Shown one piece after another: positions 6,625 to 28,404 of a DNA stretch of 64,000 bases. The notes below the pieces were generated by a model. That model was not told the DNA's origin and made no database searches. It saw nothing but the letters and a program-made list of their open reading frames with translations. The stretch lies in IMG/VR virus record IMGVR_UViG_3300043395_001986, positions 173,308 to 237,307 of that record; one strand, given 5' to 3'. Source of the stretch: a virus. Its lineage: Duplodnaviria; Heunggongvirae; Uroviricota; Caudoviricetes. Numbering within the stretch: position 1 is the stretch's first letter; every line of letters starts with the position of its first letter. A program made the translations under genes and the position numbers.

Positions 6625-6635
6625 ATTTATATAAT

Positions 6636-7040: not shown

Positions 7041-7042
7041 AA

Positions 7043-7643: not shown

Positions 7644-7652
7644 TTTGTAAAA

Positions 7653-11959: not shown

Positions 11960-12604
11960 ATGACAACAATCATAAAAATAAAAAACTATATTGCAGATAA
12001 GATAGCAATATTTTTCCTGGCATTAGTAGGTATATGGATTGCTTTTGCATTATTATTCCAACTTACAATGGTGGGTATACATTTTAGTGGAAATACACAA
12101 TTAGAAACAGATATTGCAAATTGGTTTAGTTGGAAATTTGATGGTACATTCAAAAACTCACCAGAAAATATTTGGTATAATGCAGAGGAACATGTTTGGG
12201 TTGAAAGTGTAGAAAATAAAGTTAAAGTTGGTAAATTAGCTGGAAACAGAAATTTAGCATTCGGTGTTAAAAATGTTTTGGAAGAAGCATTGCAAGAAAA
12301 AGGATTGGATTTAGCACCATCAGCAACACAAAAATTAAAAGTTGAAATTATCTATTTAGATGTTTTAACAACAAAATCAAATATCTCCGTATTTCACAAA
12401 GGAGAAGAGGAAGTAGTCATCCGCCTTAAAGGTACAATTTACAAAGATGGCAAAAAAGACAAAGAGGTTATAGTTGAAGAAAGTTCTGCTGAAATCTCAA
12501 TGTCAACGCTCATAATAGATGAAGGTGGTAAGTTTAACCAGACTTCTTTAAGCAATGCATTGAAGAAAGGTTCTGTTAAACTTATTACTAAACTATTTGA
12601 GTAA
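11960..12604 (+). CDS. Membrane-anchored hypothetical protein
   Basis: Two N-terminal hydrophobic helices (IAIFFLALVGIWIAFALLFQLTMVGI); soluble C-terminal domain. Confidence 0.45.
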   Translation: MTTIIKIKNYIADKIAIFFLALVGIWIAFALLFQLTMVGIHFSGNTQLETDIANWFSWKFDGTFKNSPENIWYNAEEHVWVESVENKVKVGKLAGNRNLAFGVKNVLEEALQEKGLDLAPSATQKLKVEIIYLDVLTTKSNISVFHKGEEEVVIRLKGTIYKDGKKDKEVIVEESSAEISMSTLIIDEGGKFNQTSLSNALKKGSVKLITKLFE

Positions 12605-12606
12605 AT

Positions 12607-14271
12607 ATGAAAAAATTATCATTGTTAGTTGCAGCTTTGTTTGTAACTATACTATCATTTGGACAAATTGTTGTTAATCAATCGGTATCATCTGGACCAT
12701 ACAAGGTTGGGGATACAATAACAATAACATATACTGTCAATAAAGGTGAAACCAAGCCTCGTTATTTTTGGTTACGATACCAATATAACAATAAGGCGTT
12801 AACTTATCTTTCAACTACATTTTCACAAGGTAGCCAATCACAAACTTATTATACAGGTTGGACAAACTATAAGTTTACTCCAAATGCAAATATAGCAGAT
12901 ACTTCGTTGTATGCACAATATAATTCTACACCTTGGGGATATGTAACAAATGCAGATTGGAATGTTGGGCAATTAGCAGTTCAAAGAGCAGATAAAAGTA
13001 TAGATGGTGTATTAGCAACTCAAAAATACATTCTTAAAGACCAAAATGCATATGCGAACTTTCATAAATTAGACCTTTCATACGCAACGGATAGTGCAAG
13101 CGGTGTATATATTCCATATGTAAAAACAACTTCGGGTCCTTTATCAATAACTGGCGTAACAGGCAATACATCATATTTTAAAGTAAGAGTATTATACCCA
13201 TCCGGATATAGTATTACTGACCACAATGTTCAATTGATGCCACTTAAAACCGATGGTAGTGGTGATATAGATTGGGCAAAACAACCAATAGCACAAAAAG
13301 TATTAGATGCAAGTGGTGAAGCCTTATTCACATCTGGAATTAAAGTTGGTGATAGTGTTGGTGTATTTGTTTCAAACGCATCCCAAAAAAGTTGGATGAA
13401 TAATGTGATAACTGTCTCTGATGCATATAAAGCATTTTTAGGTATAACTCAAACAGATTTGACGGGAGTTCCAACATATTTCCAAAGACCAGCATTAGAA
13501 AAGAAAATTGGTAATGTAACTAAAAACGATATGGACTTTACAGAGGCAGATGCATACAATTTATTTGCATATGTAATGGGACAAGATGTATCAGCAAACG
13601 CATTTATTCCAACATCAACCGCAACTTCATGGAGATGGCATAGTGGTTTATTAAATCAAAGTTGGTTAAACGGAACGGCGACAAATAAAGTATATGTAAC
13701 AGCACCACAACAAACAGCAGAAGCGGTATTTGCATGGGGTGGTGATTTAGACTGGTCACATTCATCTTTTCCTGATACAATCGCAGCAAGAATAGCAAGT
13801 GGTATCTATACAAACGCAGTTAATCCTGGTACATCGGATGTAGCTAATATTAAAACTATGGCAGTTTCAACAAACACATCAATTGCATATAATTCGGCTA
13901 CATTAGAAACAATATCATTGGGTGTAACTTCTAAATTGGAAGGTGGTAAAGTTGTATTAAGTACAAACTTAACAAAAGAAGGTTTAGCAGGTTTACAGGT
14001 CATAATGCAATACGATAGCACAAAATTAAGTTTAGATAATGTAATATTCAATACAGGTTCAACAATGACAAACTTCTCAACAAAAGCAGATGGTAGACTG
14101 ACTTTTGGTTCTATTGACCAATTAAAAACTGCGCGAATTAAAGTTGGAACACCTTATATATTGATATTCACTCCAAAGGTAACATTAAATAATACAGCAG
14201 GTTTATTCTATTTCGTATTAGCAGATGCAGTTGACGGAAACGGAAACAAACTAAATCTAAACATAGAATAA
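12607..14271 (+). CDS. Secreted modular protein with dockerin-like repeats and C-terminal cohesin-like domain
   Basis: Sec signal MKKLSLLVAALFVTILSFGQ; VITVSDAYKAFLGITQTDLTG and NDMDFTEADAYNLFAYVMGQD resemble dockerin Ca-binding repeats; C-terminus KVVLSTNLTKEGLAGLQVIMQYDSTKLSLDNVIFNTGS...DGRLTFGSID matches the cohesin pattern (..V.V.L....GF.G.QF.L.YD...L......G). Confidence 0.6.
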   Translation: MKKLSLLVAALFVTILSFGQIVVNQSVSSGPYKVGDTITITYTVNKGETKPRYFWLRYQYNNKALTYLSTTFSQGSQSQTYYTGWTNYKFTPNANIADTSLYAQYNSTPWGYVTNADWNVGQLAVQRADKSIDGVLATQKYILKDQNAYANFHKLDLSYATDSASGVYIPYVKTTSGPLSITGVTGNTSYFKVRVLYPSGYSITDHNVQLMPLKTDGSGDIDWAKQPIAQKVLDASGEALFTSGIKVGDSVGVFVSNASQKSWMNNVITVSDAYKAFLGITQTDLTGVPTYFQRPALEKKIGNVTKNDMDFTEADAYNLFAYVMGQDVSANAFIPTSTATSWRWHSGLLNQSWLNGTATNKVYVTAPQQTAEAVFAWGGDLDWSHSSFPDTIAARIASGIYTNAVNPGTSDVANIKTMAVSTNTSIAYNSATLETISLGVTSKLEGGKVVLSTNLTKEGLAGLQVIMQYDSTKLSLDNVIFNTGSTMTNFSTKADGRLTFGSIDQLKTARIKVGTPYILIFTPKVTLNNTAGLFYFVLADAVDGNGNKLNLNIE

Positions 14272-14274
14272 TAA

Positions 14275-16932
14275 ATGAAAAAATTATTAGTTACACTATT
14301 CTTATTTATATCATTTTTAGGGTTCGGTCAGCAAATAAATGCACCAGACCCTAAAGAGTTTACTGTCAACACATCCGGACAAGATGCAAGTGGATTTAGT
14401 TTAAGTGGATTTAATTCTACTGCAACTTTACTTTGTGCAATTGGTTTACCCACAGCACCAATCGGAACTACATTTTATTTCTCAACAACATCCGGCGTAA
14501 CTGCATCAACCGGTTACACAATGAGTGGTAACAAAACTCGTATTTCATTCACCGGAACAATGGCTAATATCAATAATGTATTGGCATCAATGAAAATAAA
14601 CACAACGGGAACAGCGGGTGATATTAGTATTTCAGTATCAGCAACTGTCAACCCAACGGGATATTATTACTTACCAACAAACGGACACTTTTATAGACCT
14701 ATGAGTGGGTTTACCGGGGTAACTGCATTTAGTGGAACTTCTGTAACTGCATATAATAATCTTAAAACCTATTGTACTCAACAATCATTCAAAGGACAGA
14801 CTGGCTATCTAATGACAATCACATCATCAGATGAAGATAACTTCGTTGTAAACAATGTACCTGGAAATAATATTATATTTGCACTTACCGATAATGTAAC
14901 CGAAGGTAGATTTGTAATTGATGCAGGACCTGAAAATGGAACTGTCGTAAGAATAAACTCAACAAATCAAACAGGACAATATAATAACTGGGCAAATGGT
15001 GAACCAAACAACTGGGGACCTGGTGAGGATTATGTTGTAACAAAATGGAATGGTTCACAATGGAATGATTTTGGACCCGAAGCAACCGCGTTCCCTGGCG
15101 GATTGGGTGGATATGTAATTGAGTTTGGAACTTGGAACAATCCTGATGACCAAACTTTTAGTGATTTTTACAATAATAGTGTGGTGCATTATAATGGTGT
15201 AAACAATAATTTAAAATCACAATTTACAATTAACTTTGGTGGCAATATAGATGAAACTAAATTTTCAGCAGCATTACATAAAAGAAATGATGCAACATCA
15301 GCTTGGACAGCAAATTCAAATGTGGCATTAAATGGAGTGGGAAGGGTAACTCTATCAACTCAATTAGATACGGCAAAGGTATTTTCATCTGCAATATCAA
15401 TAGCAGCAACAAATGATATGACTCAATATAGTGAAAGTGATATTGGTAAGATATATAAAATGACTATAACGGGCAATACAGGTGGCGGTGCAATTTGGGG
15501 GACAAACATATACACAAACGATTCATATATTCCAAAAGCAGCAGTGCACGCTGGGATTTTAACTGCCGGACAAACAAAAGAAGTTTACATTAAAATAGTT
15601 GAAGGACAAAACGACTATCCATCAACAACACAAAATGGTATAACATCGGATAGTTGGGGAGCATGGGGATTGAGTTATCAATTTGTTGCCAATCCAACTG
15701 CATACAAAGCAACAATTACACCGGGGCAAGTTGAATGGTCTTATACAAATCCAAACGCAAGTTGGTTGAGTGGTAATAGTAGATTGTTAATAGATATGAG
15801 ACAAGTTGGTAGTATTGACCCTACTAAAATTACACATACAAAAATATTTGATGCATATGATGGAGTTATGACATATACTTCGCATGACGCAAATGGTTGG
15901 GCAATATACACAGTCCCATCACCACTAACAAAAATAACTGATGGAACTTCCGCATACAATTCTTATATTAGAAATGTAAATAATTGGAATACGGATTATG
16001 CTTTTCAAAGCACAATCACACTTACACAACAAGGAGCATATAAACAACATAAATTTGTATTTCAAAATTATGATTCGGTTCAATTAAAATCTCTTTATAA
16101 TAGTATTGTGACGGTATCGGATGTGTATTTGGCATTCAAAGAATATTCAGAAGCAGGTGGTATATTTGGTGGTGGAAGTGGAACACAATTTACCTATGGT
16201 ATTCAATTCAAAAATGCGGATGTAGATGGTAATAATGTATTTGATGAAAGAGATTGTTTTAGATTATTACAAAACCTTACAGGTGCAAGAGATTTAGTAA
16301 GTAGTTATGTGTTGGATAGCACTATGAAAATTGTGTTGGACTCTACATACGGAACTATTGGAAAATCTAATTGGCAACAATTTCCATCTTATTTAGGAAA
16401 GGAATATAGTTTTAGTTTATTAGAAGGAAAAACAAACTATTCATACAATTTAGCGGTAACTTGGAAAGGTGATGTAAACTTATCACATTCAGCAACACCG
16501 CCGGCAAATGGTATAACAAATATGTCAGCAAACTTTGGTGAAAGAGTGCAATCAATGGGTGTAAGTGTTCCAATGAATGCAAGTATAATGACTGAATTGA
16601 GTGGGGATAGTGTGTATGTAGAAATCGTATTTAACCCAGGAGATAACAACATAGTAGGAACTCAATTCCAATTAAACTATGATAACTCTTTGTTAAAATA
16701 TAATAAAACCGAATATATCGTAAATGGTTCACCAACTAACTATTCCGCAAACAAAGGAACTTTTATTAATGTGGGTTCTTTGAATACGGATGGTTCACAA
16801 ATTACATCAGCAACTTACAAAGTTCTATTCACTACTACACAAAAATTGAATGGTGGATTGGGATTGGTAAGTGTGGGTAATTCGGAAGCAGTTAGTAAAG
16901 ATGGTAAATCATTGGGAGTAAAAATAAAATAA
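14275..16932 (+). CDS. Secreted modular protein: C-type lectin-like domain + LCCL domain + dockerin-like + cohesin-like modules
   Basis: Signal MKKLLVTLFLFISFLGFGQ; CTLD: GHFYRP...KTYCTQQ...GYLMTITSSDEDNFV...NNWANGEPNNWGPGEDYVVTKWNGSQWNDFG; LCCL: IWGTNIYTNDSYIPKAAVHAGIL; dockerin-like DVDGNNVFDERDCFRLLQNLTG; cohesin-like VYVEIVFNPGDNNIVGTQFQLNYDNSLLKY. Confidence 0.7.
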   Translation: MKKLLVTLFLFISFLGFGQQINAPDPKEFTVNTSGQDASGFSLSGFNSTATLLCAIGLPTAPIGTTFYFSTTSGVTASTGYTMSGNKTRISFTGTMANINNVLASMKINTTGTAGDISISVSATVNPTGYYYLPTNGHFYRPMSGFTGVTAFSGTSVTAYNNLKTYCTQQSFKGQTGYLMTITSSDEDNFVVNNVPGNNIIFALTDNVTEGRFVIDAGPENGTVVRINSTNQTGQYNNWANGEPNNWGPGEDYVVTKWNGSQWNDFGPEATAFPGGLGGYVIEFGTWNNPDDQTFSDFYNNSVVHYNGVNNNLKSQFTINFGGNIDETKFSAALHKRNDATSAWTANSNVALNGVGRVTLSTQLDTAKVFSSAISIAATNDMTQYSESDIGKIYKMTITGNTGGGAIWGTNIYTNDSYIPKAAVHAGILTAGQTKEVYIKIVEGQNDYPSTTQNGITSDSWGAWGLSYQFVANPTAYKATITPGQVEWSYTNPNASWLSGNSRLLIDMRQVGSIDPTKITHTKIFDAYDGVMTYTSHDANGWAIYTVPSPLTKITDGTSAYNSYIRNVNNWNTDYAFQSTITLTQQGAYKQHKFVFQNYDSVQLKSLYNSIVTVSDVYLAFKEYSEAGGIFGGGSGTQFTYGIQFKNADVDGNNVFDERDCFRLLQNLTGARDLVSSYVLDSTMKIVLDSTYGTIGKSNWQQFPSYLGKEYSFSLLEGKTNYSYNLAVTWKGDVNLSHSATPPANGITNMSANFGERVQSMGVSVPMNASIMTELSGDSVYVEIVFNPGDNNIVGTQFQLNYDNSLLKYNKTEYIVNGSPTNYSANKGTFINVGSLNTDGSQITSATYKVLFTTTQKLNGGLGLVSVGNSEAVSKDGKSLGVKIK

Positions 16933-17831
16933 TGAAAAAAATATTATTAATCATATCATTGGTTTTAATTGGATTTGTATCAAACGCACAAATACAAAAA
17001 CCTGATACATTACAATTATCCGCAAAAGAATTATTTGGAGAGAGTGATGATTGGAATGATGTGGGTATATTACAATCCTATATTGATTTCTCAAAAGATG
17101 TTCTTTCATCATCAAATCTTTCGGTTGGTATAATTGGAAAACAGGTATCAACAACACTTAATTTAGGATATAGTAAATCATCACTAAATGGAAAATGGGC
17201 ACATACATTTGCAGCATCAATAAATCCTTTATGGAAATATTATGGAGTGGGATATGGTTTAAGTAGAAATACTGAAAAGAGAACAACAACAATACAAACA
17301 TTTTATTCTACGGATTTTGATTTTCAAAAAGATATTAACCTATCATTTATTGATGTGTTTAGAACTAAAAAATGGGGAACATTTGGATATAGTTTAACTG
17401 CATCAAAAACATTTTGGGGAGAATATGAAAATGTTTCTGCTTGGGAAGGTAAGTTTATTGTTGATGAAAATGGTAATTGGGTAAAAAACATATATCCAAT
17501 AGACCCAGCATCATCTGAACTTACTTATAGAGGTATGGCAATGTACACATATACATTGAAAACAAAAAGAGTGAATATATCACCACAGGTATTTGCAATG
17601 AGTGATATATACAAAGTATTCAAAAATGGTGGCACATCTGATTTTTCGTACTTTGATGATTTCAATTTGGACTTATATTATGGAGTATCTATGGATTGGA
17701 AAATAACTAAAAGATTTGTGTTGAATACCAATGTTAGATATAACACAACTTGGGATACATTAAGTGAATCAGTTGGATATAAAAAGAGTAACCCAATCCT
17801 ATTTATGATAGGAACAAACTTTCAATTTTAA
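16932..17831 (+). CDS. Secreted outer-membrane beta-barrel-like protein (paralog of C-terminal domain of 22856 ORF)
   Basis: Signal MKKILLIISLVLIGFVSNAQ; alternating hydrophobic beta-strand pattern; C-terminal aromatic (..NFQF); ISPQVFAMSD...ITKRF.LNTNVRYN aligns with ISPQVFGMNS...ISKRFGFSFNYRAS of 22856 ORF. Confidence 0.5.
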   Translation: MKKILLIISLVLIGFVSNAQIQKPDTLQLSAKELFGESDDWNDVGILQSYIDFSKDVLSSSNLSVGIIGKQVSTTLNLGYSKSSLNGKWAHTFAASINPLWKYYGVGYGLSRNTEKRTTTIQTFYSTDFDFQKDINLSFIDVFRTKKWGTFGYSLTASKTFWGEYENVSAWEGKFIVDENGNWVKNIYPIDPASSELTYRGMAMYTYTLKTKRVNISPQVFAMSDIYKVFKNGGTSDFSYFDDFNLDLYYGVSMDWKITKRFVLNTNVRYNTTWDTLSESVGYKKSNPILFMIGTNFQF

Positions 17832-18175
17832 TGAAGAAGATATTATTTATATTATTTTTAAGTTTGGTAGCTTGTAGAAAAGTAGAAGTTATACCAACAC
17901 CACAACCTACAACAACCGATATATTTTCAAAATCAGAAGTAGCAGTTAAAGATGGACAAGATATACAATTCAAACTTACATCAGCAGGTAAATATATACT
18001 TACTTTGATGGATTCAACTCAAACACAGGTAGTAACAAAAGAAAAATTTACTGGAATTGTTGGAGATAACACAAAAAAAATATATACTAAATCATTATCA
18101 CAAAAAAGTTTATATTTATACCTAACAGACGAGAGTAACAAAGAAATTGGAAAAACTAAAATAACAATAAATTAA
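17831..18175 (+). CDS. Small lipoprotein (paralog A) with beta-sandwich/T9SS-CTD-like C-terminal pattern
   Basis: Lipobox LSLVAC; C-terminal alternating pattern YILTLMD...KSLYLYLTDESNKEIGKTKITIN similar to neighbour 18177 ORF. Confidence 0.5.
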   Translation: MKKILFILFLSLVACRKVEVIPTPQPTTTDIFSKSEVAVKDGQDIQFKLTSAGKYILTLMDSTQTQVVTKEKFTGIVGDNTKKIYTKSLSQKSLYLYLTDESNKEIGKTKITIN

Positions 18176-18176
18176 G

Positions 18177-18545
18177 ATGAAAAAACTATTATTCGTATTA
18201 TTCGGAATTATGGTTATAGCAGGATGTAGAAAAGACCCATTTGTAACCCCACCAGTTGCGGTTGACAATAGTCTTACAATTTCACAATCCGTTGGTATTA
18301 AATTACAATCACCATTTGTGACAACAGAAGTAGCAATGAATGTAAAAGTTGAAGCAGGACAAAATGTGACAATAAAGATATTTGATATTGCAAACAGAGT
18401 AGTATCAAAAGAAACGGCATGGGTAAATAGTGGTGATAATATCTTAAAGGTATATACATCAGCACTTCCAGCATCAGCATATAGAATTGGTTTATATGAC
18501 GTAAATGGAAAACAATTAGGTATAACAGATTTTAACAAATTATAA
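18177..18545 (+). CDS. Small lipoprotein (paralog B) with beta-sandwich/T9SS-CTD-like C-terminal pattern
   Basis: Lipobox VIAGC; VTIKIFDIANRVVSKETAWVNSGDNILKVYTSALPASAYRIGLYDVNGK resembles Por/T9SS C-terminal sorting domain pattern (v.iyD..Gr.v....G.n...id.s.l..GvY.v.l). Confidence 0.5.
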   Translation: MKKLLFVLFGIMVIAGCRKDPFVTPPVAVDNSLTISQSVGIKLQSPFVTTEVAMNVKVEAGQNVTIKIFDIANRVVSKETAWVNSGDNILKVYTSALPASAYRIGLYDVNGKQLGITDFNKL

Positions 18546-18556
18546 AAAGTAACAAA

Positions 18557-18871
18557 ATGGCAGAAGAAACACAAGAGCAATCAACAGGTGGTTCAATGAA
18601 AAACGTAATCATCGGTTTTGTATCTACGATTACATTAGGTTTGGGTACATGGGTAACAACAAAATTAACAGGTGGTGAAGAAAAGGAAGCTCCGGTACAA
18701 ACCGCAGCACCAGTAATTAACATTCAAAACACCCAACAACAATCAGCAGGCAAGACTGTAATTGTAAATGGTGGTGGAAACAATGGTGGGGCAGCAGCTA
18801 AACCAACAGATGCACCAAAACCAAAGAAGAAAGAGGGTGATGAGTTTAAAGAAAAAGCACCTGAATGGTAG
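18557..18871 (+). CDS. Small membrane protein
   Basis: One TM helix (VIIGFVSTITLGLGTWVTTKL); Gly/Ala/Lys-rich tail. Confidence 0.4.
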   Translation: MAEETQEQSTGGSMKNVIIGFVSTITLGLGTWVTTKLTGGEEKEAPVQTAAPVINIQNTQQQSAGKTVIVNGGGNNGGAAAKPTDAPKPKKKEGDEFKEKAPEW

Positions 18872-18955
18872 TATGGTATCAAATAGGGACGGTTCTATTT
18901 TTTATAATAGGATTGACTTTATTAATTAAATGGTCATTTAAAATAAAGAAAGAAG

Positions 18956-19633
18956 ATGAGTAATCAACAACCACCAAGCGGGTTTAGAGACCTGTTAAAT
19001 AAAATGATGAGTCGTAGATGGTATATTACCGCTATGGTATTAGGTGGGTTTATGGTAATTATTGCAGGTATCTTTACCGCAATTAGTTTACAAACCCCAA
19101 TGGCGGCAGCATGGAAAGAATTACTAATGTTATTATTGGGTGCTTTCATTGGTAGCTATGGTAAAATCATAGATTACTGGTTTAGTGATACTGATAAGGA
19201 TAAAATGTTAGTACAAAAGATGGATGAAGAAGATGGTGTTACCCTTTCACATACAAACGATATGAAAGAAAGTAACAAAGAAATCGCACCAACCATTCCA
19301 GATGCATTTGTACAAGGAGCAGCAGCTGCAAGTAAATTAGCAGTAGTTGAAAACCTACAAAACTTTGAATTAGCTAAAATGGAAGTAAATGTAAAATCAG
19401 AACCAAATAATCCACAACATAGTGAAACTCCGTTCAAAGCACAACCTAGAACAGGTGTTGAAGTGGATGAGGATGGTGATGGTAAAATGGATGGTATTGA
19501 TTTTGATGGTGATGGTGTAATTGATATGTATTTTGCACATCGTCAATGTGAGCATGTATGGGGTGATGCAGACCACGATGGACACGATGAGTGCCAAAAA
19601 TGCGGTTTATTAAAAGAAAAATATAACGGATAA
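18956..19633 (+). CDS. Membrane protein with Asp/Gly-rich Ca-binding-like repeats and His/Cys-rich C-terminus
   Basis: Two TM helices near N-terminus; EVDEDGDGKMDGIDFDGDGVID (EF-hand/D-x-D-G-like repeats); HRQCEHVWGDADHDGHDECQKCG metal-binding cluster. Confidence 0.45.
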   Translation: MSNQQPPSGFRDLLNKMMSRRWYITAMVLGGFMVIIAGIFTAISLQTPMAAAWKELLMLLLGAFIGSYGKIIDYWFSDTDKDKMLVQKMDEEDGVTLSHTNDMKESNKEIAPTIPDAFVQGAAAASKLAVVENLQNFELAKMEVNVKSEPNNPQHSETPFKAQPRTGVEVDEDGDGKMDGIDFDGDGVIDMYFAHRQCEHVWGDADHDGHDECQKCGLLKEKYNG

Positions 19634-19669
19634 AGGTTACATAGTTAATAACAATTAAAAACAAAAGCT

Positions 19670-19945
19670 ATGGGATTTTTTAAAGATTTAGTAAGTGATG
19701 ATAATCACATAAACGAAAAATCAGTAATCGGTATCTTATCATTCTTTGTAATGGTATTATGTATGATTGTTGATTTAGTAACTGGTGCAATGAACAAACC
19801 ATTATTAATTAATGAATTTGTATTCAATGCATTTATGTATCTAACTTTAGGAGCATTTGGTATTGGTTCTATTGATAAATTCATCAATAAGAAATCAATA
19901 ACGGATAAAGCTAAAATAGATGCCGGTGTTGAAGAAGAAGGATAA
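19670..19945 (+). CDS. Small two-TM membrane protein (holin-like topology)
   Basis: 91 aa with two hydrophobic helices (VIGILSFFVMVLCMIVDLV; FVFNAFMYLTLGAFGIGS) and charged C-terminus; followed by a strong terminator. Confidence 0.4.
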   Translation: MGFFKDLVSDDNHINEKSVIGILSFFVMVLCMIVDLVTGAMNKPLLINEFVFNAFMYLTLGAFGIGSIDKFINKKSITDKAKIDAGVEEEG

Positions 19946-19962
19946 TAATTTGATAATATTAT

Positions 19963-19993
19963 AAACCCTCACTTTTGGTGAGGGTTTTTTATT
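19963..19993 (+). terminator. Rho-independent terminator
   Basis: AAACCCTCAC-ttttg-GTGAGGGTTT followed by TTTATTTATT; perfect 10-bp stem. Confidence 0.75.
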
Positions 19994-20000
19994 TATTGTT

Positions 20001-20696
20001 ATGAAAGAAAAATTGACGATTGTTATTCCGTGTAAAAACGAAAAAGATAACATATATGAGTGTATTTCATTTATTGCAAAACAAGTGGGTTCCGCAGGAC
20101 TTAAAGTTATTATTGCAGATAACTCCGATGAAGGAGATAGTTTAGATTTTTTGTATTTTGTTCAAAGAGATTTTAAATATTGTTTGGATATTCAAATCAT
20201 AGAAGGTGGATTTCCTGCAAAAGCTCGTTTAGAAGGTAGTAAATTGGTTGAAACACCTTATATTCTTTTTTTAGATGCAGATATAATGTTGCAAAATAAA
20301 TTTGTATTAGGTGAATGTTTAGTATACGATACGGATTTAGTGACCGTTCCATTTCAAACCGAAAAAGGATTTAATTGGATATTTAGATTATTTGATATTC
20401 AGCAAAGATTGAGTAATTGGTTGGGAACACCATTTGCAATTGGTGGTTTTCAATTTTGGAAAACAGAAGCATATTGGAAAACTGGTGGATATGATGAAAC
20501 ACATTTATTTGCAGAAGATTATTGGGTATCACAAAAAACAGAGGTAATGAAAATACACAAAACAAAAGGTGTATGGACATCCGCAAGAAGATTTAAAAAT
20601 AAAGGATTTTTTTATATGTTTTGGTTGAGTATAAAATGTTACTTTAATAGAAATAATCCAGAATTTTTCAAAAAACATCACAACTATTGGATATGA
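20001..20696 (+). CDS. Glycosyltransferase family 2
   Basis: MKEKLTIVIPCKNEKDNIYECISFIAKQ (GT2 N-terminus), FLDADIML (DxD). Confidence 0.6.
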   Translation: MKEKLTIVIPCKNEKDNIYECISFIAKQVGSAGLKVIIADNSDEGDSLDFLYFVQRDFKYCLDIQIIEGGFPAKARLEGSKLVETPYILFLDADIMLQNKFVLGECLVYDTDLVTVPFQTEKGFNWIFRLFDIQQRLSNWLGTPFAIGGFQFWKTEAYWKTGGYDETHLFAEDYWVSQKTEVMKIHKTKGVWTSARRFKNKGFFYMFWLSIKCYFNRNNPEFFKKHHNYWI

Positions 20697-20763
20697 AAAA
20701 GAAAATCTATTTTAATGAAGCATTGATTGGTGCTTCAATTTTAATGATAATCCTTATTAAACT

Positions 20764-21495
20764 ATGCACTCTATAAAATACAAAGCTATTATTGTTTCTG
20801 ATTTGCATTTAGGAACAAAAGATAGTAAAGCAGAAGAATTTATTGAATTTATTGAAAACCACCCAACAGAATTATTAATTTTGAATGGAGATATCGTAGA
20901 TGGTTGGGCAATCAATAGAGGTGCAAAATGGAAAAAACAACACACAAAAGTAATAAGTAAATTATTAAAACTTTCAAATAAAACACAAATCATTTGGATA
21001 AGAGGAAATCATGACGAATTTATACAAGAATTTATCGGAAATCATTTCGGTGGAATTGAAATTAGAGAAGATTATATTATCGACTTACCTAATTCTAATA
21101 AGAGTTATTATGTTTTCCACGGAGATGTTATTGATGTTTTTATAACAAAATATAAATGGTTGGCAAAAATAGGGTCAGTAGGATACGATTTTGCACTTTG
21201 GTTAAATAGATGGTATAATCATTATCGTAAATGGAGAAATTTACCATATCAATCTATATCACAAAAAATAAAAAGTGGAGTAAAAGCGGCAACTAATTAT
21301 ATAAACGATTTCGAAACAACCGCATTATCTATGGCAACTAAAAAAGGTTGTGATGGAGTAATGTGTGGACATATTCATCAACCCGAAGATAGAACTATAA
21401 ATGGAAAGCATTATGTTAATTCTGGAGATTGGGTAGAAAATATGACTGCGATTTGTATAGATAAAGATGAAAATCTATATTTATACAAAAAGTAG
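20764..21495 (+). CDS. Calcineurin-like metallophosphoesterase (LpxH/YmdB-like)
   Basis: Metallophosphatase motifs IIVSDLHLG (D-x-H), GDIVDGW (GD), IRGNHDE (GNHD/E), FHGDVID, CGHIHQP (GH-x-H). Confidence 0.65.
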   Translation: MHSIKYKAIIVSDLHLGTKDSKAEEFIEFIENHPTELLILNGDIVDGWAINRGAKWKKQHTKVISKLLKLSNKTQIIWIRGNHDEFIQEFIGNHFGGIEIREDYIIDLPNSNKSYYVFHGDVIDVFITKYKWLAKIGSVGYDFALWLNRWYNHYRKWRNLPYQSISQKIKSGVKAATNYINDFETTALSMATKKGCDGVMCGHIHQPEDRTINGKHYVNSGDWVENMTAICIDKDENLYLYKK

Positions 21496-21500
21496 TATGT

Positions 21501-22223
21501 ATGAAAAATTTATTAGTGTTATTAAGTTTCTTTTTGTTAAGCAGTGTTGCGGGTGTTGCGCAAACAATAGGAGTAACAAAAACAGAAGAGTTTAAAGCAG
21601 ATTTCGAAAAGAAGAAAGATATATCTGCATATTTGGATTACGATGGTCCAAAGAAAAATATCCAAATCTTAAAGTGTGGTATCGGTGAAGAAGTATATGA
21701 AATGTATCCTGAACTAAAAGAAAAGAGAGTTGGATTGGGTGTTGCAAATATCGTATTGGAATATTTGGATAACCTTAATCGTTTTGAATTTACCGAAGAT
21801 AAGACAGAAATCAAAAACAGAATGGTGCAACAATTTAAAGCATCAAACGCTGGTATTTCTGAAAACAAAATTGAAGGTAGAGGAAAGATTAAATTAGCAA
21901 ACTATTTTGTTGAAATCGAAGTATACGATTATTCAGTATCAGAAGATGAAACTATCAACTTAAAAGATGGTATCAAAGACAATATGGTAACTCGTTTAGG
22001 TTTACAGGTTAGATTCACAAATGCGGAAAATGGTTCAATTATAGCAGCATCTGGTTTGGGTGAAGCTAAAACAAATAGACAATTAACATTAGTTTCAGAT
22101 GCATCAGTAGACCCCATTAAATTCAATCAATCAACTATATCTATATCTACAAAGAAAGCATTGGATATAGCATGTGCAAATATATTAGATAAAATGATTA
22201 AAAAAGGTGTATTCACTAAATAG
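21501..22223 (+). CDS. Secreted protein of unknown function (possible CsgG/LpoB-like fold)
   Basis: Sec signal MKNLLVLLSFFLLSSVAGVAQT; no catalytic motif recognised. Confidence 0.45.
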   Translation: MKNLLVLLSFFLLSSVAGVAQTIGVTKTEEFKADFEKKKDISAYLDYDGPKKNIQILKCGIGEEVYEMYPELKEKRVGLGVANIVLEYLDNLNRFEFTEDKTEIKNRMVQQFKASNAGISENKIEGRGKIKLANYFVEIEVYDYSVSEDETINLKDGIKDNMVTRLGLQVRFTNAENGSIIAASGLGEAKTNRQLTLVSDASVDPIKFNQSTISISTKKALDIACANILDKMIKKGVFTK

Positions 22224-22324
22224 ATTATGGGAAGTGCAGCAAAAAAACCAAGACCAATGAAAAGTAGAAGAAGTGGTGTAAAGAAAAAACAATTAGTAGA
22301 TGCAAATTTAGCAATCTTAAAGAA

Positions 22325-22555
22325 ATGCACTACGAAGTAATAGATGTTCCACAAAACAATCCATGTCAAAATTGTACACCATGTATGAGAATGAAATTGA
22401 TGGAAATGGGATTCGTAGAAGGACAAGAAATAGAAGTTACGGAAAAAATGAAGGGATTGTATGTAGTTGATATGATTTCTGAAAATGGACATGTAGAACA
22501 AACAATTGCATTAAGAAAAGAAGAATTAGATAGAATTTGCTATAAAATTAAATAA
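22325..22555 (+). CDS. FeoA-like small SH3-fold protein
   Basis: RMKLMEMGFVEGQEIEVTEKMKGLYVVDMISENGHVEQTIALRKEELDRI resembles FeoA domain (..L..lGf..G..v.v.......gp..v...g....l....a..i.v). Confidence 0.4.
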   Translation: MHYEVIDVPQNNPCQNCTPCMRMKLMEMGFVEGQEIEVTEKMKGLYVVDMISENGHVEQTIALRKEELDRICYKIK

Positions 22556-22557
22556 CT

Positions 22558-22854
22558 ATGAAAAATTTATTATTATTGGCAACATTGTTATTAGGAATAG
22601 CAAGTTGCACACCGGTTAGATATGTAATGATTGACCCTAAAGACTCTACAAAAGTAGTAGAAATTAGAAAGAGAGTAATTTATGATGATACATATTTACA
22701 CACACCTTTATATTTTAATTATTGGGGGTCTCCATATTATAGATTTAACTATTCACCTAGAATTGTAGTTCCTATTAGACCTACACCTCCTGTTCGTATT
22801 CAACCATCACCAAGACCAATGCCTAAATACATGCCAAGAGGAGGCAGACATTAA
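22558..22854 (+). CDS. Small Pro-rich lipoprotein
   Basis: Lipobox LLGIASC; C-terminal Pro-rich IRPTPPVRIQPSPRPMPKYMPRGGRH. Confidence 0.45.
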   Translation: MKNLLLLATLLLGIASCTPVRYVMIDPKDSTKVVEIRKRVIYDDTYLHTPLYFNYWGSPYYRFNYSPRIVVPIRPTPPVRIQPSPRPMPKYMPRGGRH

Positions 22855-22855
22855 A

Positions 22856-24355
22856 ATGAAAAAATGGATTGTTACTCTTACGATATTAATTGTTACAATC
22901 CTAACGGCAAATAAAGCCGAAAGCCAGACTTATACTCAAACTTTTATAGATAAGTGTACCGGTGAGGCAAAAATAGCAACTACAACGATTATAAACGGAA
23001 ATGCGACGGTTTCTTTCTATAATGAAGTAAGAACATTCACGCCATTAGAAGTTCAATCAGGTGTAACGCAAGTATGGTTAAATGCAACCTATGCAAAATA
23101 TCAAACAATGGGTTGCCCTACTAATCAAGTAGTAGCACAGACTGTACAAGCGACGGTAAATCAAGCAGCATCAACAGCAGCGGCAGCGGCTGCCTCATCA
23201 GCAGCGAGTTCAGCCGCTTCATCTGCGGCTAGTTCATCGGCATCTGCAGCGGCAAGTAGTTCTGCAAGTTCGGCAGCATCTTCATCAGCAAGTTCTGCAA
23301 GTAGTTCAGCAGCAAGTAGTGGAGCGAGTGCATCCACATCATCTGCACCACCACCTTCAAGTAGTTCTTCATCATCAAGTTCTTCTACATCAAGTAGTAG
23401 TTCTTCATCTTCATCATCTTCAAGCTCAAGTAGTTCTTCATCTTCATCTTCGGAAAGTAAAACGGAAACAAAGAGTGAAGGTAGTTCTTCATCATCCGAG
23501 TCAAAGAGTGAGAATAAATCAGAAACAAAATCTGAAAGTAAATCGGAAGAAAAGAAATCGGAAAGTAAGAGTGAGGAAAAAAAGGAAGAGAAAAAGTCCG
23601 ATGAAAAGAAAGAAGAAAAAAAGGAAGAGAAGAAAGAGGAAAAAAAAGAAGAAAAGAAGGATGATAAAAAAGATGACAAAAAGAAAGAAAAGAAAATCAA
23701 TCTTAACCCACAATTGGTTTCATCGGATTTAACAACATCGGAAGGACCGGATAGAAAATATAATGCAATATTAGGATTGGGTTGGAGTAGAGCAAGTATG
23801 ACAGGAGAAAGTAGTGTATCAGTAAACGGAATGATATGGAGTTCTTTGGACCAATACGCATTGAGTGGTGGATATACTAAAATGGAATTTGAGGAAGGTG
23901 AATTAAAAGCAATACATTCATACGGAACTACATTTGCATACCTCAAAGGAACTTATATGAATATGTTGGGTTATACTTGGATTAAACCTGATATGAAAAG
24001 AGGAACGTATGGTTACAATGTTGGATTGATAAATCTATTAATGAAAAATGCAGATGGAAATTACAATTACAACTTAATGACTTCCGTTGTGGCGTTTTGG
24101 ACTAAACCTTATCAATATAGTAGAAAACTTACAATATCACCACAGGTATTTGGAATGAACTCACCAATATCATATAATGCAAAAACTGGAAATACATTAG
24201 TTACACGACATTATGGGTTTATGTTGGGTAGTTCGTTTGATTATAAAATTAGTAAAAGATTTGGATTTAGTTTCAATTATAGAGCAAGTGTAAACACACA
24301 ACCTGGTACACCAATTTTACATAATTTCCTTATAGGTAGTAGAATGGTTTTGTAA
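22856..24355 (+). CDS. Secreted protein: N-terminal domain + ~220-aa Ser/Ala then Ser then Lys/Glu low-complexity linker + C-terminal OM beta-barrel-like domain
   Basis: Signal peptide MKKWIVTLTILIVTILTANKAES; AAAAAASSAASSAASS...SSSSSSSS...KSESKSEEKKEEKKEEKK; C-terminal domain paralogous to 16932 ORF. Confidence 0.55.
   Translation: MKKWIVTLTILIVTILTANKAESQTYTQTFIDKCTGEAKIATTTIINGNATVSFYNEVRTFTPLEVQSGVTQVWLNATYAKYQTMGCPTNQVVAQTVQATVNQAASTAAAAAASSAASSAASSAASSSASAAASSSASSAASSSASSASSSAASSGASASTSSAPPPSSSSSSSSSSTSSSSSSSSSSSSSSSSSSSSSESKTETKSEGSSSSSESKSENKSETKSESKSEEKKSESKSEEKKEEKKSDEKKEEKKEEKKEEKKEEKKDDKKDDKKKEKKINLNPQLVSSDLTTSEGPDRKYNAILGLGWSRASMTGESSVSVNGMIWSSLDQYALSGGYTKMEFEEGELKAIHSYGTTFAYLKGTYMNMLGYTWIKPDMKRGTYGYNVGLINLLMKNADGNYNYNLMTSVVAFWTKPYQYSRKLTISPQVFGMNSPISYNAKTGNTLVTRHYGFMLGSSFDYKISKRFGFSFNYRASVNTQPGTPILHNFLIGSRMVL
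23160..23700 (+). repeat. Coding low-complexity / short tandem repeat tract (GCN/AGY Ser-Ala repeats then AAR/GAR Lys-Glu repeats)
   Basis: Directly visible nucleotide periodicity (gcagcaagttc.., aagaaagaggaaaaaaaagaagaaaag..) inside 22856 ORF. Confidence 0.6.
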
Positions 24356-24386
24356 GATTATTATATTTATTTTAAACTCTTTATTA

Positions 24387-25022
24387 ATGAAAAAATTATT
24401 GTTATTGACTACTTTGTTATTTGCATTTGTAGTTACATTTTCGCAGGACGTAGTTGTATTCAAACACACAAACTACACATCGCATTTTAGTAAATCAAAA
24501 TTATATCCCGTTATGGTAGAATGGTGGGAAACCAAAGCAAAAGTTGGTTGTCCAAATCCATTACCAAGAAAAGATGCATTTCAACCAGACCCACAGGATA
24601 TGCAATTAACGGATATTAAAGCAGATTATGTTGGTAGTGGTTTTGATAGAGGACATATGAGTCCTGCAGCATCAAATCAATGTCAAACTGCAGATGTTCA
24701 AATTGAATGTTTTTATATGAGTAATATGGCAGCTCAATATCATAGTTTAAATGCAGGAGATTGGAAATCATTAGAAACTGCAACAAGAGAATGGGCAATC
24801 AAAGATGATAGTATTCATATTTGGGCAGGCAACATTGGTGAATTAAAAAGAATAGGTAGAGTAGCAGTACCAAAAATGTGCTGGAAAGTTGTACATGATT
24901 TAAAAACAAAAGAATGGTTTTTCTTTTTGTTTGATAATGTAGCTGATAAGCCAACGGGATTAAAATCACATGAAGTTTTAAGAGAAGATATAGAAAAACT
25001 TACAGGTTTTAAATTTAAATAA
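24387..25022 (+). CDS. Secreted DNA/RNA non-specific endonuclease (Serratia NucA-like, DRGH motif)
   Basis: Signal MKKLLLLTTLLFAFVVTFSQ; active-site motif GFDRGHMSPAA (DRGH) and downstream N/E residues. Confidence 0.7.
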   Translation: MKKLLLLTTLLFAFVVTFSQDVVVFKHTNYTSHFSKSKLYPVMVEWWETKAKVGCPNPLPRKDAFQPDPQDMQLTDIKADYVGSGFDRGHMSPAASNQCQTADVQIECFYMSNMAAQYHSLNAGDWKSLETATREWAIKDDSIHIWAGNIGELKRIGRVAVPKMCWKVVHDLKTKEWFFFLFDNVADKPTGLKSHEVLREDIEKLTGFKFK

Positions 25023-28184: not shown

Positions 28185-28358
28185 ATGAAAAAGGCAATGT
28201 ACGCTTTCGTAGCAATCACTTTGACTCTTGCAATGGTAGCATGTGGTTCAAACAACACAACTGCAATCAATGTAGCTGACTCAACAGCAGTAGCAACTGA
28301 TTCAACAGCAAAGGTTGATAGCGCAGCAGTGGTAGCTGATAGCACAGCAACAAAGTAA
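28185..28358 (+). CDS. Unannotated 57-aa lipoprotein-like peptide with ADSTA repeats
   Basis: MKKAMYAFVAITLTLAMVACGSNNTTAINVADSTAVATDSTAKVDSAAVVADSTATK; not in ORF track (<60 aa; track shows antisense 28154..28345); own promoter-like motif and perfect terminator. Confidence 0.5.
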   Translation: MKKAMYAFVAITLTLAMVACGSNNTTAINVADSTAVATDSTAKVDSAAVVADSTATK

Positions 28359-28379
28359 TTCTAAAATTACTGAAAAGCA

Positions 28380-28404
28380 AGGGGTCAAACGACCCCTTTT
28401 TTAT
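28380..28404 (+). terminator. Rho-independent terminator
   Basis: AAGGGGTC-aaac-GACCCCTT followed by TTTTA; perfect 8-bp GC-rich stem. Confidence 0.8.

Follow-up and report, generated by a model that had tools for sequence, protein, structure and literature searches.

In the window, which is the whole 64-kb stretch of viral DNA that we analysed, a block of 16 genes at positions 11960–25022 (named here by their start coordinates and all on the + strand) encodes predominantly proteins that carry export signals or membrane helices. A simple scan for N-terminal hydrophobicity, lipoboxes and transmembrane segments, applied to all 111 non-overlapping + strand ORFs, assigned a Sec-signal, lipoprotein or membrane flag to 12 of these 16 genes, or 13 with the weaker helix of 18557, as against 11 of the 95 genes elsewhere in the window (Fisher p = 4e-7, odds ratio ~23). 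This agrees with the initial annotation, in which most products of the region were held to be exported or membrane-bound. All 14 ORFs that it placed between 12607 and 24355 were present at their coordinates on the + strand, but their consecutive same-strand arrangement was uninformative because every gene in the window lies on that strand. The limits had to be moved: the block starts at 11960, whose homologues occur in 77/80 loci, always directly 5′ of the 12607 homologue, and ends with a signal-peptide-bearing nuclease at 24387–25022. Counts out of 80 refer to the loci fetched from 137 matching IMG/VR contigs; gp numbers refer to Flavobacterium phage vB_FspM_immuto (immuto), a cultured myovirus with a reduced version of the block. 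Among homologues, export signals were kept despite divergence of the signal-peptide sequence itself.

Gene products and transcription unit

The first conserved gene, 11960 (11960–12604), encodes an N-terminal signal-anchor helix followed by a periplasmic YajG-like domain (Pfam Lipoprotein_16, PF03923; 26.3 bits, cut-off 25), and its C-terminal domain is resembled by immuto gp019. It is followed by two genes for large secreted proteins. The 554-aa product of 12607 (12607–14271), present in 80/80 loci with a conserved signal peptide for Sec export, consists of a beta-rich N-terminal domain and a C-terminal cohesin (~residues 420–554). Pfam Cohesin matched all 26 of the 26 C-termini in this family (best E = 4e-7), and a profile search of the PDB returned scaffoldin cohesins at the top (E = 0.002–0.004), whereas the N-terminal profile found no credible relative there. 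The 885-aa product of 14275 (14275–16932) carries a Sec signal, a C-type lectin domain (~160–265), an LCCL domain (405–465; Pfam E = 5.7e-15, a region that roughly one in three homologues possesses) and a C-terminal module with paralogy to 12607 (E = 2e-7), so that, judged by these profile matches, both proteins end in a shared cohesin domain; immuto gp015 is likewise annotated as a cohesin domain protein. Lectin_C matched 15/15 homologues of 14275 (best 3e-15), and the domain from the window alone scored 25.7 bits against a cut-off of 22.6. Its motifs EPN (243–245) and WND (263–265) were retained in 60/60 distinct homologues, an invariance that implies selection for sugar binding. Pfam returned no dockerin partner in the block. 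Candidate dockerin-like stretches could be read in 12607 and 14275 themselves. Neither protein showed a T9SS C-terminal domain (CTD) in Pfam, in the TIGR04183/NCBIfam profiles or among the family C-termini; both may therefore remain periplasmic, with no evident route across the outer membrane.

Two genes encode putative outer-membrane proteins whose C-termini matched each other (E = 2e-6), in keeping with their earlier description as beta-barrel-like paralogues. The product of 16932 (16932–17831) has a Sec signal, ~14 predicted strands and a C-terminal ...NFQF; a low-confidence model (pLDDT 58) supports its assignment as an outer-membrane beta-barrel. PorV was among the top structural matches, which did not distinguish it from other 12–16-stranded barrels, and Pfam and NCBIfam gave no PorP/SprF or PorV family match. 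This gene is an optional member, found in ~35/80 loci and thus absent from more than half, with ~81–85% identity where present. In 22856 (22856–24355), a Sec signal and then a small N-terminal domain containing Cys precede a low-complexity linker of ~200 aa, first Ser/Ala-rich and then Lys/Glu-rich, and a C-terminal beta-barrel, a layout that by analogy may be called autotransporter-like. Homologues occur in 57/80 loci, a signal peptide or lipobox was seen in 34 of 36 members of a 36-locus ORF cluster of this family, and the N-terminus of immuto gp018 resembles that of 22856.

The adjacent genes 17831 (17831–18175; lipobox LVAC, Ig-like beta-sandwich) and 18177 (18177–18545; lipobox IAGC, T9SS-CTD/DUF3244-like beta-sandwich) encode small paralogous lipoproteins (E = 3e-10) whose lipobox Cys was invariant across 28 aligned homologues. 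Weak matches to DUF3244 (13/28) and Por_Secre_tail (12/28) were obtained in this family; 18177 itself matched DUF3244 at E = 5e-4 and TIGR04183 at E = 0.0035, with 17.3 bits against a cut-off of 23. These sub-threshold matches in the two small lipoproteins are the only ones that tie the block to T9SS, and the link they suggest is weak.

Three membrane proteins follow. The 104-aa product of 18557 (18557–18871) has an acidic N-terminus, a single membrane helix and a low-complexity Lys-rich tail; it occurs in 68/80 loci, and its immuto homologue, gp016, lies directly upstream of the 21501 homologue. The inner-membrane protein 18956 (18956–19633) has two conserved helices (~23–44 and ~55–72) and a C-terminal tail that the positive-inside rule predicts to be cytoplasmic, in which acidic DxDGDG loops and a Cys/His motif, HRQCEH...ECxKCG, are found. 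In alignments of 54 and 20 homologues, the two helices and the C/H residues were invariant, and the predicted cytoplasmic location makes the EF-hand-like loops unlikely cohesin partners. The 91-aa product of 19670 (19670–19945) is holin-like, with two helices and a charged C-terminus, and matched no Pfam or PHROG holin family; in 58/58 complete loci, either a member of its family or a divergent 82-aa version is present, never both. Downstream of 19670, an intrinsic terminator (19963–19987), noted as strong in the initial annotation, was recovered as an 11-bp stem with 5 G-C pairs and a T-run, ending the 11960–19945 unit. Of 30 distinct related loci, 22 had a terminator-like hairpin at the equivalent position, their stem sequences differing. 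On this evidence, the first nine genes are predicted to be transcribed as one unit, up to a terminator whose position is conserved.

Beyond the terminator, 21501 (21501–22223) encodes a secreted, non-lipidated periplasmic protein of the CsgG/PelC/LpoB/LptE/TraT fold class, transitively linked to Pfam CsgG; it is a divergent CsgG-fold protein. In contrast to that class, it is phage-encoded and lacks a lipobox, so that it would be soluble, and it has a long hairpin that is charged, not amphipathic; without the CsgG lipid anchor and with such a hairpin, it is probably not a membrane channel. A KFNQ(S/T)..S.A.KK C-terminal motif is common to 21501 and 11960, and hhalign saw that motif only, at a probability of 31%.

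The remaining genes are variable inserts. Pfam confirmed the FeoA-like protein and the GT2/metallophosphoesterase pair of the initial annotation: 20001 (20001–20696) encodes a cytoplasmic GT2 glycosyltransferase (Glycos_transf_2, E = 3e-11) found in only 10/80 loci, every time with 20764 (20764–21495; 10/80), a calcineurin-like metallophosphoesterase (Metallophos, E = 5.8e-14) that is distantly LpxH-like, scoring 59 bits with the NCBIfam UDP-2,3-diacylglucosamine diphosphatase model, far under its cut-off of 134. The small cytoplasmic FeoA-like protein 22325 (22325–22555; FeoA, E = 1.4e-7) occurs in 12/80 loci, and the 98-aa lipoprotein 22558 (22558–22854; lipobox IASC, Pro/Arg-rich tail) in 7/80. 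At the 3′ edge, just outside the range first listed, the accessory gene 24387 (24387–25022) encodes a DNA/RNA non-specific endonuclease with a Sec signal (Endonuclease_NS, E = 1.2e-32); it is present in 15/80 loci, and its immuto relative, gp012, lies at the 5′ edge of the immuto cassette.

A conserved cassette restricted to phages

Across the 80 viral contigs, gene order was conserved as 11960-12607-14275-(16932)-17831-18177-18557-18956-19670, followed at intervals by 21501 and 22856, while the flanking genes differed and were rearranged around this fixed interior, which suggests that the block functions as a unit. Rather than a chance run, it is a cassette, widely conserved and mobile. The 14 genes first listed do not all belong to it, since 20001, 20764, 22325 and 22558, each in 7–12/80 loci, are not core; the variable slots collect further envelope genes in other loci, including a TonB-dependent-receptor-like protein (7 loci), extra barrels and extra lipoproteins.

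The carriers are a large clade of uncultured jumbo phages of Flavobacterium-type Bacteroidota and one cultured relative, immuto, the only cultured member of the clade, which came from a Baltic Sea mesocosm. A search of genomes representing 185,579 species gave only six matches, all on contigs of metagenome-assembled genomes (MAGs) binned as Flavobacterium, Sediminibacterium or Bacteroidetes, and none in isolate genomes; the cassette family is phage-restricted. The earlier view that this is a phage element holds, given that it occurs in immuto and on IMG/VR contigs as long as 335 kb, as does the proposed Bacteroidota host, given the MAG bins and the immuto host, Flavobacterium sp. LMO8. Envelope-targeted, non-structural products are likewise indicated by context: the immuto cassette sits among replication and nucleotide-metabolism genes of early type, and no protein of the block matched a PHROG family. 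The envelope-remodelling interpretation was partly supported: the phage origin, the host and the envelope targeting held, the T9SS link was weak, and the roles suggested at first (superinfection exclusion, receptor masking, manipulation of gliding or biofilms) are candidates. No hallmark structural gene was identified in the 64-kb window. The initial annotation made no mention of the conserved mobile unit, the cohesin, C-type lectin and CsgG-like proteins, the variable occurrence of four of its 14 genes or the adjoining lysis genes.

Relation to known systems and competing explanations

The cassette could be assigned to none of the curli, Pel, T9SS cargo, cellulosome or spanin systems, and we found no description of such an envelope module in the literature searched. 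In contrast to curli (type VIII secretion), Pel and Lpt, it lacks CsgA, B, E and F, the Pel partners and LptD. The C-terminal cohesins of 12607 and 14275 recall cohesin–dockerin assemblies, and 14275, like scaffoldins, would pair a carbohydrate-binding C-type lectin with a cohesin on one polypeptide; unlike a cellulosome, the cassette is a phage element of a Gram-negative host, without detected dockerins or glycoside hydrolases. Phages and plasmids encode envelope proteins that exclude other elements or change the surface, such as the T5 lipoprotein Llp, the lambda barrel Lom and lambda lipoprotein Bor, and plasmid TraT. These are single genes, mostly in temperate elements, whereas the cassette comprises ~10 co-ordered genes conserved across a large clade and has sequence homology to none of them.

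The main competing explanation, albeit an unlikely one and not raised in the initial annotation, is a role in lysis or egress, suggested by the lysis genes that lie beside the cassette in some relatives: the cassette, or the 11960–19945 operon, would be a Bacteroidota-specific apparatus with which the phage breaches the envelope as infection ends. The inner membrane would be the target of the holin-like 18557, 18956 and 19670, and the outer membrane that of the anchored periplasmic protein, the lipoproteins and the barrels, in the manner of spanins; the secreted nuclease and the lectins would serve to condition the lysate. Of the 80 loci, 13 have an endolysin next to the cassette. In 12 of them, including the window's closest relative, a GH19-type endolysin gene lies directly upstream of the 11960 homologue; downstream of the cassette in the other locus come a 19670-like gene, the endolysin and a holin. 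In immuto, the 19670 homologue gp192 (48% identity, E = 3e-19) adjoins endolysin gp191 and holin gp190, and the layout of 19670 resembles that of class II holins. The combination of an inner-membrane-anchored periplasmic protein with outer-membrane lipoproteins is formally spanin-like, and a secreted nuclease is attached in 15 loci. Against this, endolysins adjoin in those 13 loci only, none was found in this window, and the immuto cassette lies 30 kb from the annotated endolysin–holin pair. Instead of short Pro-rich o-spanins, the cassette has lipoproteins that are folded Ig-like domains of ~100 aa; a coiled-coil i-spanin and the embedded or overlapping gene architecture of spanins are absent; and neither Pfam nor PHROGs gave a holin or spanin family match. 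Moreover, the cassette is far larger than lysis cassettes, and no part in lysis is known for proteins like its lectin, LCCL, cohesin and CsgG-like members.

The accessory genes raise the improbable alternative of nutrient scavenging, in which phage-encoded outer-membrane channels and periplasmic binders would import sugars, nucleotides, phosphate or iron for a very large genome. The TonB-dependent-receptor-like, FeoA, nuclease and phosphoesterase genes in the slots would suit such uptake, and the lectin could capture glycans. However, these uptake-related genes are all variable inserts, the core contains neither an inner-membrane transporter nor a periplasmic binding-protein fold, and the 16932 barrel is missing from more than half of the loci.

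Still less probable is interference with T9SS and gliding, with 17831 and 18177 mimicking cargo tags and a PorV-like 16932 mimicking the shuttle, so as to jam the secretion or display of gliding adhesins that serve as phage receptors. The adhesin-like 14275 directly precedes the ~300-aa barrel 16932, as in T9SS cargo paired with PorV or PorP/SprF barrels, the neighbouring lipoproteins have the weak CTD-like matches given above, and tailed-phage resistance in flavobacteria has usually been mapped to genes for T9SS and gliding (PMC12781566). Nevertheless, 12607 and 14275 lack type A and type B CTDs, and the CTD-like domain constitutes an entire lipoprotein rather than a cargo tail. The CTD matches all fall under curated thresholds and are no better than those to DUF3244, the PorV match is shared with other barrels of 12–16 strands, 16932 is optional, and the cassette has no other T9SS-like part.

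It is highly improbable that the products are virion fibres or baseplate proteins with apparent leaders, despite the large, beta-rich, lectin-bearing 12607 and 14275 that recall receptor-binding proteins, or that the DNA is bacterial and miscalled as viral, despite the lack of a hallmark structural gene, since proteins with an invariant lipobox Cys, an outer-membrane barrel or a conserved cleavable signal could not take part in virion assembly in the cytoplasm, no PHROG structural family matched, and the cassette lies on 137 IMG/VR contigs and among DNA-metabolism genes in a cultured myovirus yet is absent from isolate genomes.

A putative phage-built envelope complex

The explanation we favour, tentatively and at somewhat less than even chances, is that the cassette encodes a phage-built complex, located in the periplasm and outer membrane, by which glycans on the host surface are coated or occupied. 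Once a cell is infected, its own Sec, Lol and BAM pathways would export ~10 phage proteins into the periplasm and the outer membrane, and one or two beta-barrels (16932 and 22856) and the two lipoproteins with Ig-like domains would take their place in the latter. Proteins of the CsgG/LpoB/YajG fold class form rings or adaptors beneath the outer membrane in bacteria, and the inner-membrane-anchored 11960 and the soluble 21501, both of this class, may act in a similar position. Through cohesin contacts of 12607 and 14275, the lectin-bearing proteins would be tethered to the membrane-anchored parts, and the lectin of 14275, predicted from EPN/WND to be Ca-dependent and of the mannose type, would have as ligands glycans of the host envelope, for example LPS, capsule or O-glycoproteins. 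The median identities, highest for membrane and periplasmic parts (16932, 81%; 21501, 78%) and lower for the ligand-binding 14275 (55%), whose domains are shuffled, are as expected for conserved machinery with an exposed, fast-evolving binder. For part of the cassette, a lysis-linked role fits at least as well, given the endolysins next to it in 13 loci and the association of the 19670 family with endolysin and holin genes in immuto and one further locus.

If such a complex coats the surface, receptors would be blocked, which would either keep out superinfecting phages or prevent progeny from being lost on infected cells and debris, and the adherence of infected cells could also change. The mapping of flavobacterial resistance to T9SS and the gliding surface machinery (PMC12781566) makes it plausible that occupation of the host surface matters to these phages.

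Export signals and conservation of the cassette

The initial annotation described a block at 12607-24355 in which most proteins carry export signals, and all 14 of its ORFs were present where described. Three features were sought in the 111 non-overlapping plus-strand ORFs of the window: an N-terminal hydrophobic core following positive charge, a lipobox, and a hydrophobic helix of 19 residues. Within 11960-25022 (hereafter the cassette, with genes named by their start coordinates), 12 of the 16 genes were flagged (13 with the weaker helix of the membrane protein 18557), compared with 11 of 95 elsewhere (Fisher p = 4e-7). Signal peptides were retained in homologues on other contigs despite drift of the signal sequence, and the lipobox cysteines of the lipoproteins 17831 and 18177 were invariant among 28 aligned sequences. 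Judged by these features, the predicted export signals of the block are genuine. The block also lies on one strand, as had been proposed, but this is uninformative, since the gene set of the whole 64-kb window is on the plus strand. The paralogies suggested within the block, the FeoA, GT2 and metallophosphoesterase assignments and the terminator at 19963-19987 all withstood re-examination. The Bacteroidota O-glycosylation motif D(S/T)(A/I/L/V/M/T) was not clearly enriched among the exported proteins, and a scan for sigma-70-type promoters, a consensus unsuited to Bacteroidota, returned 105 candidates, whereas shuffled sequences averaged 122.3 (sd 10.7); the count is thus at chance level or below.

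Using the 885-aa protein 14275 as a query in IMG/VR, we matched 137 viral contigs, 80 loci of which were fetched for comparison (contigs up to 335 kb; 50-97% identity). When the window proteins were compared with these loci by tblastn, a fixed order emerged: 11960-12607-14275-[16932]-17831-18177-18557-18956-[19670] ... 21501 ... 22856. The core genes 11960, 12607, 14275, 17831, 18177, 18557, 18956 and 21501 were each detected in at least 63-80 of the 80 loci, and these counts are lower bounds because contig ends cut many loci. The barrel-type gene 16932 was found in approximately 35 of the 80. The 91-aa family of the membrane protein 19670 and a divergent 82-aa two-helix family were mutually exclusive, one or the other being present in all 58 complete loci. 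GT2 and the phosphoesterase (20001 and 20764; 10 of 80 loci), FeoA (22325; 12), the lipoprotein 22558 (7) and the secreted nuclease (24387; 15), are inserts into variable slots. In other phages these slots hold further lipoproteins and, in 32 loci, a signal-peptide protein of 275 aa, rich in Pro, Arg and Trp towards its N-terminus and in beta structure towards its C-terminus, where we read a small barrel. In seven loci (L023:18773-21025 and six others), a 750-aa signal-peptide protein whose N-terminus reads as TonB-dependent-receptor plug-like is inserted after the 21501 homologue; this protein would be a phage-encoded outer-membrane receptor.

Genes flanking the cassette were neither conserved nor fixed in arrangement, the genes 25063, 26700 and 27510, downstream in the window, being found on the upstream side in L017, L078 and other loci; the cassette therefore behaves as a unit. 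Moreover, of 30 distinct loci, 22 had a terminator-like hairpin after the 19670 homologue, with stems that differed in sequence, and this positional retention indicates that the first nine genes form a conserved transcription unit.

Phage origin and neighbouring genes

Among 50,697 phage records, no DNA similarity to 12000-25000 was found. A tblastn search of cultured phages with 14275, 12607 and 11960 likewise gave no match; only the CsgG-like protein 21501 found a relative, 55-58% identical, in the cultured myovirus Flavobacterium phage vB_FspM_immuto (160 kb; host Flavobacterium sp. LMO8; source, a Baltic Sea mesocosm). This phage carries a reduced cassette running from a nuclease (gp012) and a C-type lectin protein (gp013) through gp014, an annotated cohesin domain protein (gp015), an 18557-like protein (gp016) and a 21501-like protein (gp017) to gp018, which resembles 22856 at its N-terminus, and the 11960-like gp019. 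It is bordered on one side by ribonucleotide reductase and resolvase genes and on the other by genes for thioredoxin and QueC. In a scan of representative genomes, which covered 185,579 species, only six relatives turned up, every one on a MAG contig: two in Flavobacterium, one in Sediminibacterium, one on a 254-kb contig binned as uncultured Bacteroidetes, and two in evident mis-bins. The host of immuto and these Bacteroidota bins bear out the Bacteroidota host proposed earlier. No match came from a PHROG scan of ten block proteins, among them all the Sec-signal proteins and lipoproteins between 11960 and 22856 inclusive.

The window has approximately 30% G+C and no tRNA; it carries CobT/CobS-like genes, and its DNA ligase best matches that of a 595-kb uncultured phage. 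Directly upstream of the cassette, 322-8576 encodes at least five glycosyltransferases (GT1/GT4 at 322 and 1178; GT2 at 3031, 4130 and 4793), four of which have homologues in a glycosyltransferase/nucleotide-sugar cluster of immuto (gp181, gp180, gp178 and gp169) that is not adjacent to the immuto cassette. Three SGNH/GDSL-type esterase look-alikes with an N-terminal GCSH, GCSY or GSSH flank the cassette on both sides (9347-10114, 10098-10943 and 25649-26545) and have no Pfam match; a single L036 ORF resembles both 10098 (33% identity) and 25649 (29%), which suggests that the two are paralogues. Further downstream, a PfkB-family sugar kinase (38532-39263) and a cytidylyltransferase-like ORF (39218-39682) together resemble a split HldE, the enzyme that makes ADP-heptose, and suggest phage-encoded nucleotide-sugar synthesis. 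Outside the block we also observed a 386-aa exported lipoprotein with FG-GAP/VCBS repeats (51977-53137; lipobox LVSC), a protein of 307 aa at 33127-34050 that strongly matches phrog_200 ('lipoprotein'; E = 2.5e-68), has a membrane helix around residue 33 and is preceded by a two-helix ORF (32715-33125), and a 115-aa protein with three membrane helices (54111-54458) that shares 47% identity with immuto gp219, whose annotation is EmrE-type small multidrug transporter. Shortly before the CobT-like gene at 28617, and preceded by a 57-aa lipoprotein ORF (28185-28358), lies a perfect G+C-rich hairpin of 8 bp (28379-28398); flanked by T-runs on either side, it could serve as a bidirectional terminator.

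Domain composition of the cassette proteins

The large secreted proteins 12607 and 14275 share a C-terminal domain that matched Pfam Cohesin (PF00963) in all 26 family C-termini (best E = 4e-7), although the window's own 12607 copy is weak, with 15.4 bits where the cut-off is 24.1. A profile of this domain retrieved cellulosomal scaffoldin cohesins first from the PDB (E = 0.0018-0.0036), and a cohesin domain is thus recognisable from sequence in both families. No block protein matched Dockerin, the partner domain, at E <= 0.01; by reading, residues 261-330 of 12607 and 605-670 of 14275 contain candidate dockerin-like helices.

All 15 homologues of 14275 that were compared matched Pfam PF00059 with their lectin domain (best 3e-15), and the copy in the window passed the threshold by itself (25.7 bits against 22.6). 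EPN and WND, the motifs of the calcium/carbohydrate site (EPN..WND), were present in all 60 distinct 14275 homologues and invariant in alignment A11; we take them to mark mannose-type sugar binding, as in known C-type lectins. By domain and motifs, 14275 can be placed among the C-type lectins, with a predicted sugar site. An LCCL domain was also detected (E = 5.7e-15), its region being present in only about one third of the homologues. A single phage protein (14275-16932) thereby holds a C-type lectin domain with animal-type EPN/WND motifs (residues 160-265) and an LCCL domain (residues 405-465), both types best known from metazoan proteins.

The protein 21501 had no Pfam match at E <= 0.01 and so did not reach the curated CsgG threshold (PF03783); its model has a predicted CsgG-type alpha/beta fold. 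A profile search of 1.84 billion representative proteins recovered only 243 clusters, and 6232 homologues (clusters at 90% identity) were counted in a large protein collection. Distant full-length relatives pass Pfam CsgG (P0357, 50.5 bits; P0390, 39.7 bits; P0364, 24 bits), and a phage protein named CsgG ranked first when viral predicted structures were compared; 21501 is therefore a divergent CsgG-superfamily protein. In three other distant relatives (P0338, P0341 and P0347; 512-535 aa), an N-terminal CsgG-like domain is followed by a caspase domain (Peptidase_C14) at the C-terminus. CsgG itself is lipidated and sits in the outer membrane, where its amphipathic transmembrane hairpins form a 36-stranded barrel. 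Neither 21501 nor its homologues have a lipobox, the signal being of type I (...VAQ/TIG) with no cysteine at the cleavage site, and the distal half (SVSEDETINLKDGIKDN) of the long hairpin modelled at residues 135-174 is charged; because of these two features, 21501 probably does not form a channel. The curli partners CsgA, B, E and F had no Pfam, NCBIfam or PHROG match in any block protein.

The signal-anchored protein 11960 passes Pfam Lipoprotein_16 (YajG) with a globular YajG-like domain. Homology with 21501 was rejected, since the two align by hhalign at a probability of just 31% and have in common only a short motif at the C-terminus. When the PDB was searched with single sequences and profiles of 21501, 11960 and 16932, and with a profile of the N-terminal domain of 12607, the matches were at chance level only, namely dihydroxyacetone kinase, eukaryotic cohesin SA-2 and antibody heavy chains. 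By Sec signal, closed antiparallel barrel and C-terminal aromatic residue, 16932 and the C-terminus of 22856 are predicted to be outer-membrane beta-barrels. The remainder of 22856 comprises a signal peptide, a small Cys-containing domain and approximately 200 residues of low complexity, Ser/Ala-rich and then Lys/Glu-rich, ahead of the 16932-paralogous domain, which suggests an autotransporter-like layout. The membrane protein 18956 has two invariant helices and a Cys/His motif in its tail, which is presumably cytoplasmic. Its DxDGDG loops were considered as a periplasmic dockerin and dropped, the second conserved helix being predicted to put the tail in the cytoplasm; homology of 18956 with 19670 was also unsupported (probability 35% over 18 columns).

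Candidate roles in the host envelope

All components of the cassette can be assigned to known fold or domain families, whereas the ensemble does not qualify as curli secretion, Pel export, T9SS cargo, a cellulosome or a spanin system. What emerges is a set of predicted periplasmic, inner- and outer-membrane proteins, specific to phages, whose genes are inherited and, by the terminator, transcribed together; the set includes a conserved predicted sugar-binding site and putative protein-protein interaction domains. We class the cassette among phage genes for modification of the host envelope. Phages are well known to encode envelope proteins singly, including exclusion lipoproteins, Llp, Lom, Bor, TraT-like proteins and spanins; to our knowledge, a conserved module of approximately ten envelope genes, in a clade with a myovirus as its only cultured member, was not known before. 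No description of the cassette was found in the literature searched, in which the Baltic Flavobacterium phage paper does not include immuto.

We tentatively favour a phage-built complex that occupies or cross-links host envelope glycans, a reading we hold at somewhat less than even confidence. A lectin-bearing cohesin scaffold would be tethered to phage-encoded membrane parts and would occupy or cross-link the glycans, and the benefit might be receptor masking, exclusion or altered adhesion. This fits the pattern of conservation, in which the membrane and periplasmic parts are most conserved (16932, 81%; 21501, 78%) and the lectin protein is at 55% and domain-shuffling, as well as the collection of other outer-membrane genes in the variable slots. 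It also fits the observation that flavobacterial resistance to tailed phages usually lies at the surface T9SS and gliding machinery (PMC12781566). Counting against it are the lack of a dockerin match in the block, the lack of an evident route across the outer membrane for 12607 and 14275, and a linkage to lysis genes that points elsewhere.

That linkage underlies the alternative of a lysis or egress apparatus. Immuto gp192, a 19670 homologue (48% identity, E = 3e-19), adjoins the endolysin gp191 and the holin gp190, 30 kb from the immuto cassette, and the cassette of L061 runs straight on into a 19670-like gene, an endolysin and a holin (L061:17695-18732). A GH19-type endolysin with a peptidoglycan-binding domain directly precedes the 11960 homologue in 12 loci, among them the closest relative of the window, L001 (endolysin at L001:7744-8253). 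At that position the window has an unrelated 333-aa ORF (10930-11931), and no endolysin homologue was found in the window. The layout of 19670 is holin-like (small, with helices and a charged C-terminus), although it matched no Pfam or PHROG holin family and the endolysin/holin synteny of immuto and L061 is not seen in the window. Given the linkage in relatives, 19670 is likely a lysis-associated membrane protein. The cassette does not form a two-component spanin: 17831 and 18177 are folded beta-sandwiches, 11960 is globular, there are no embedded genes and an endolysin adjoins only 13 of the 80 loci. At least part of the cassette may act in lysis or egress, an alternative that we rate as unlikely.

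Nutrient scavenging is less probable still. Interference with the T9SS through CTD mimicry appears more doubtful again: the lipoproteins 17831 and 18177 have matches to the T9SS sorting domain, yet all of these are sub-threshold (for the type A CTD, TIGR04183 / PF18962, 18177 reaches 17.3 bits, short of the cut-off of 23), and DUF3244 is matched equally well. Furthermore, the CTD-like domain forms the lipoprotein body rather than a cargo tail, and 12607 and 14275 end in cohesin domains without a T9SS CTD. The cassette family is phage-restricted, and we regard virion parts or bacterial DNA as a highly improbable explanation.

The preferred envelope complex has a more ambitious form, which we consider unlikely: a multi-protein machine, assembled by a clade of Flavobacterium-type jumbo phages in the periplasm and outer membrane of the host, in which a cohesin-held, lectin-bearing scaffold on phage barrels, lipoproteins and CsgG-like adaptors would reprogramme the infected-cell surface. 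T9SS- or gliding-associated receptors might, for example, be masked, or infected cells might stick to glycans or neighbouring hosts. We know of no other phage with such a virus-encoded machine.

A very abundant clade of large freshwater and brackish phages thus maintains approximately ten envelope-directed genes side by side and in constant order, and C-type lectin, LCCL and cohesin domains are now placed in a viral setting. Phage immuto on Flavobacterium sp. LMO8 offers a cultured model for testing the module, which, depending on the outcome, may prove to be a new mechanism of exclusion or adhesion or, in the lysis of Bacteroidota, the outer-membrane step that has been missing. If the proteins act together, large phages would devote a sizeable conserved share of their genomes to re-engineering the Gram-negative envelope.
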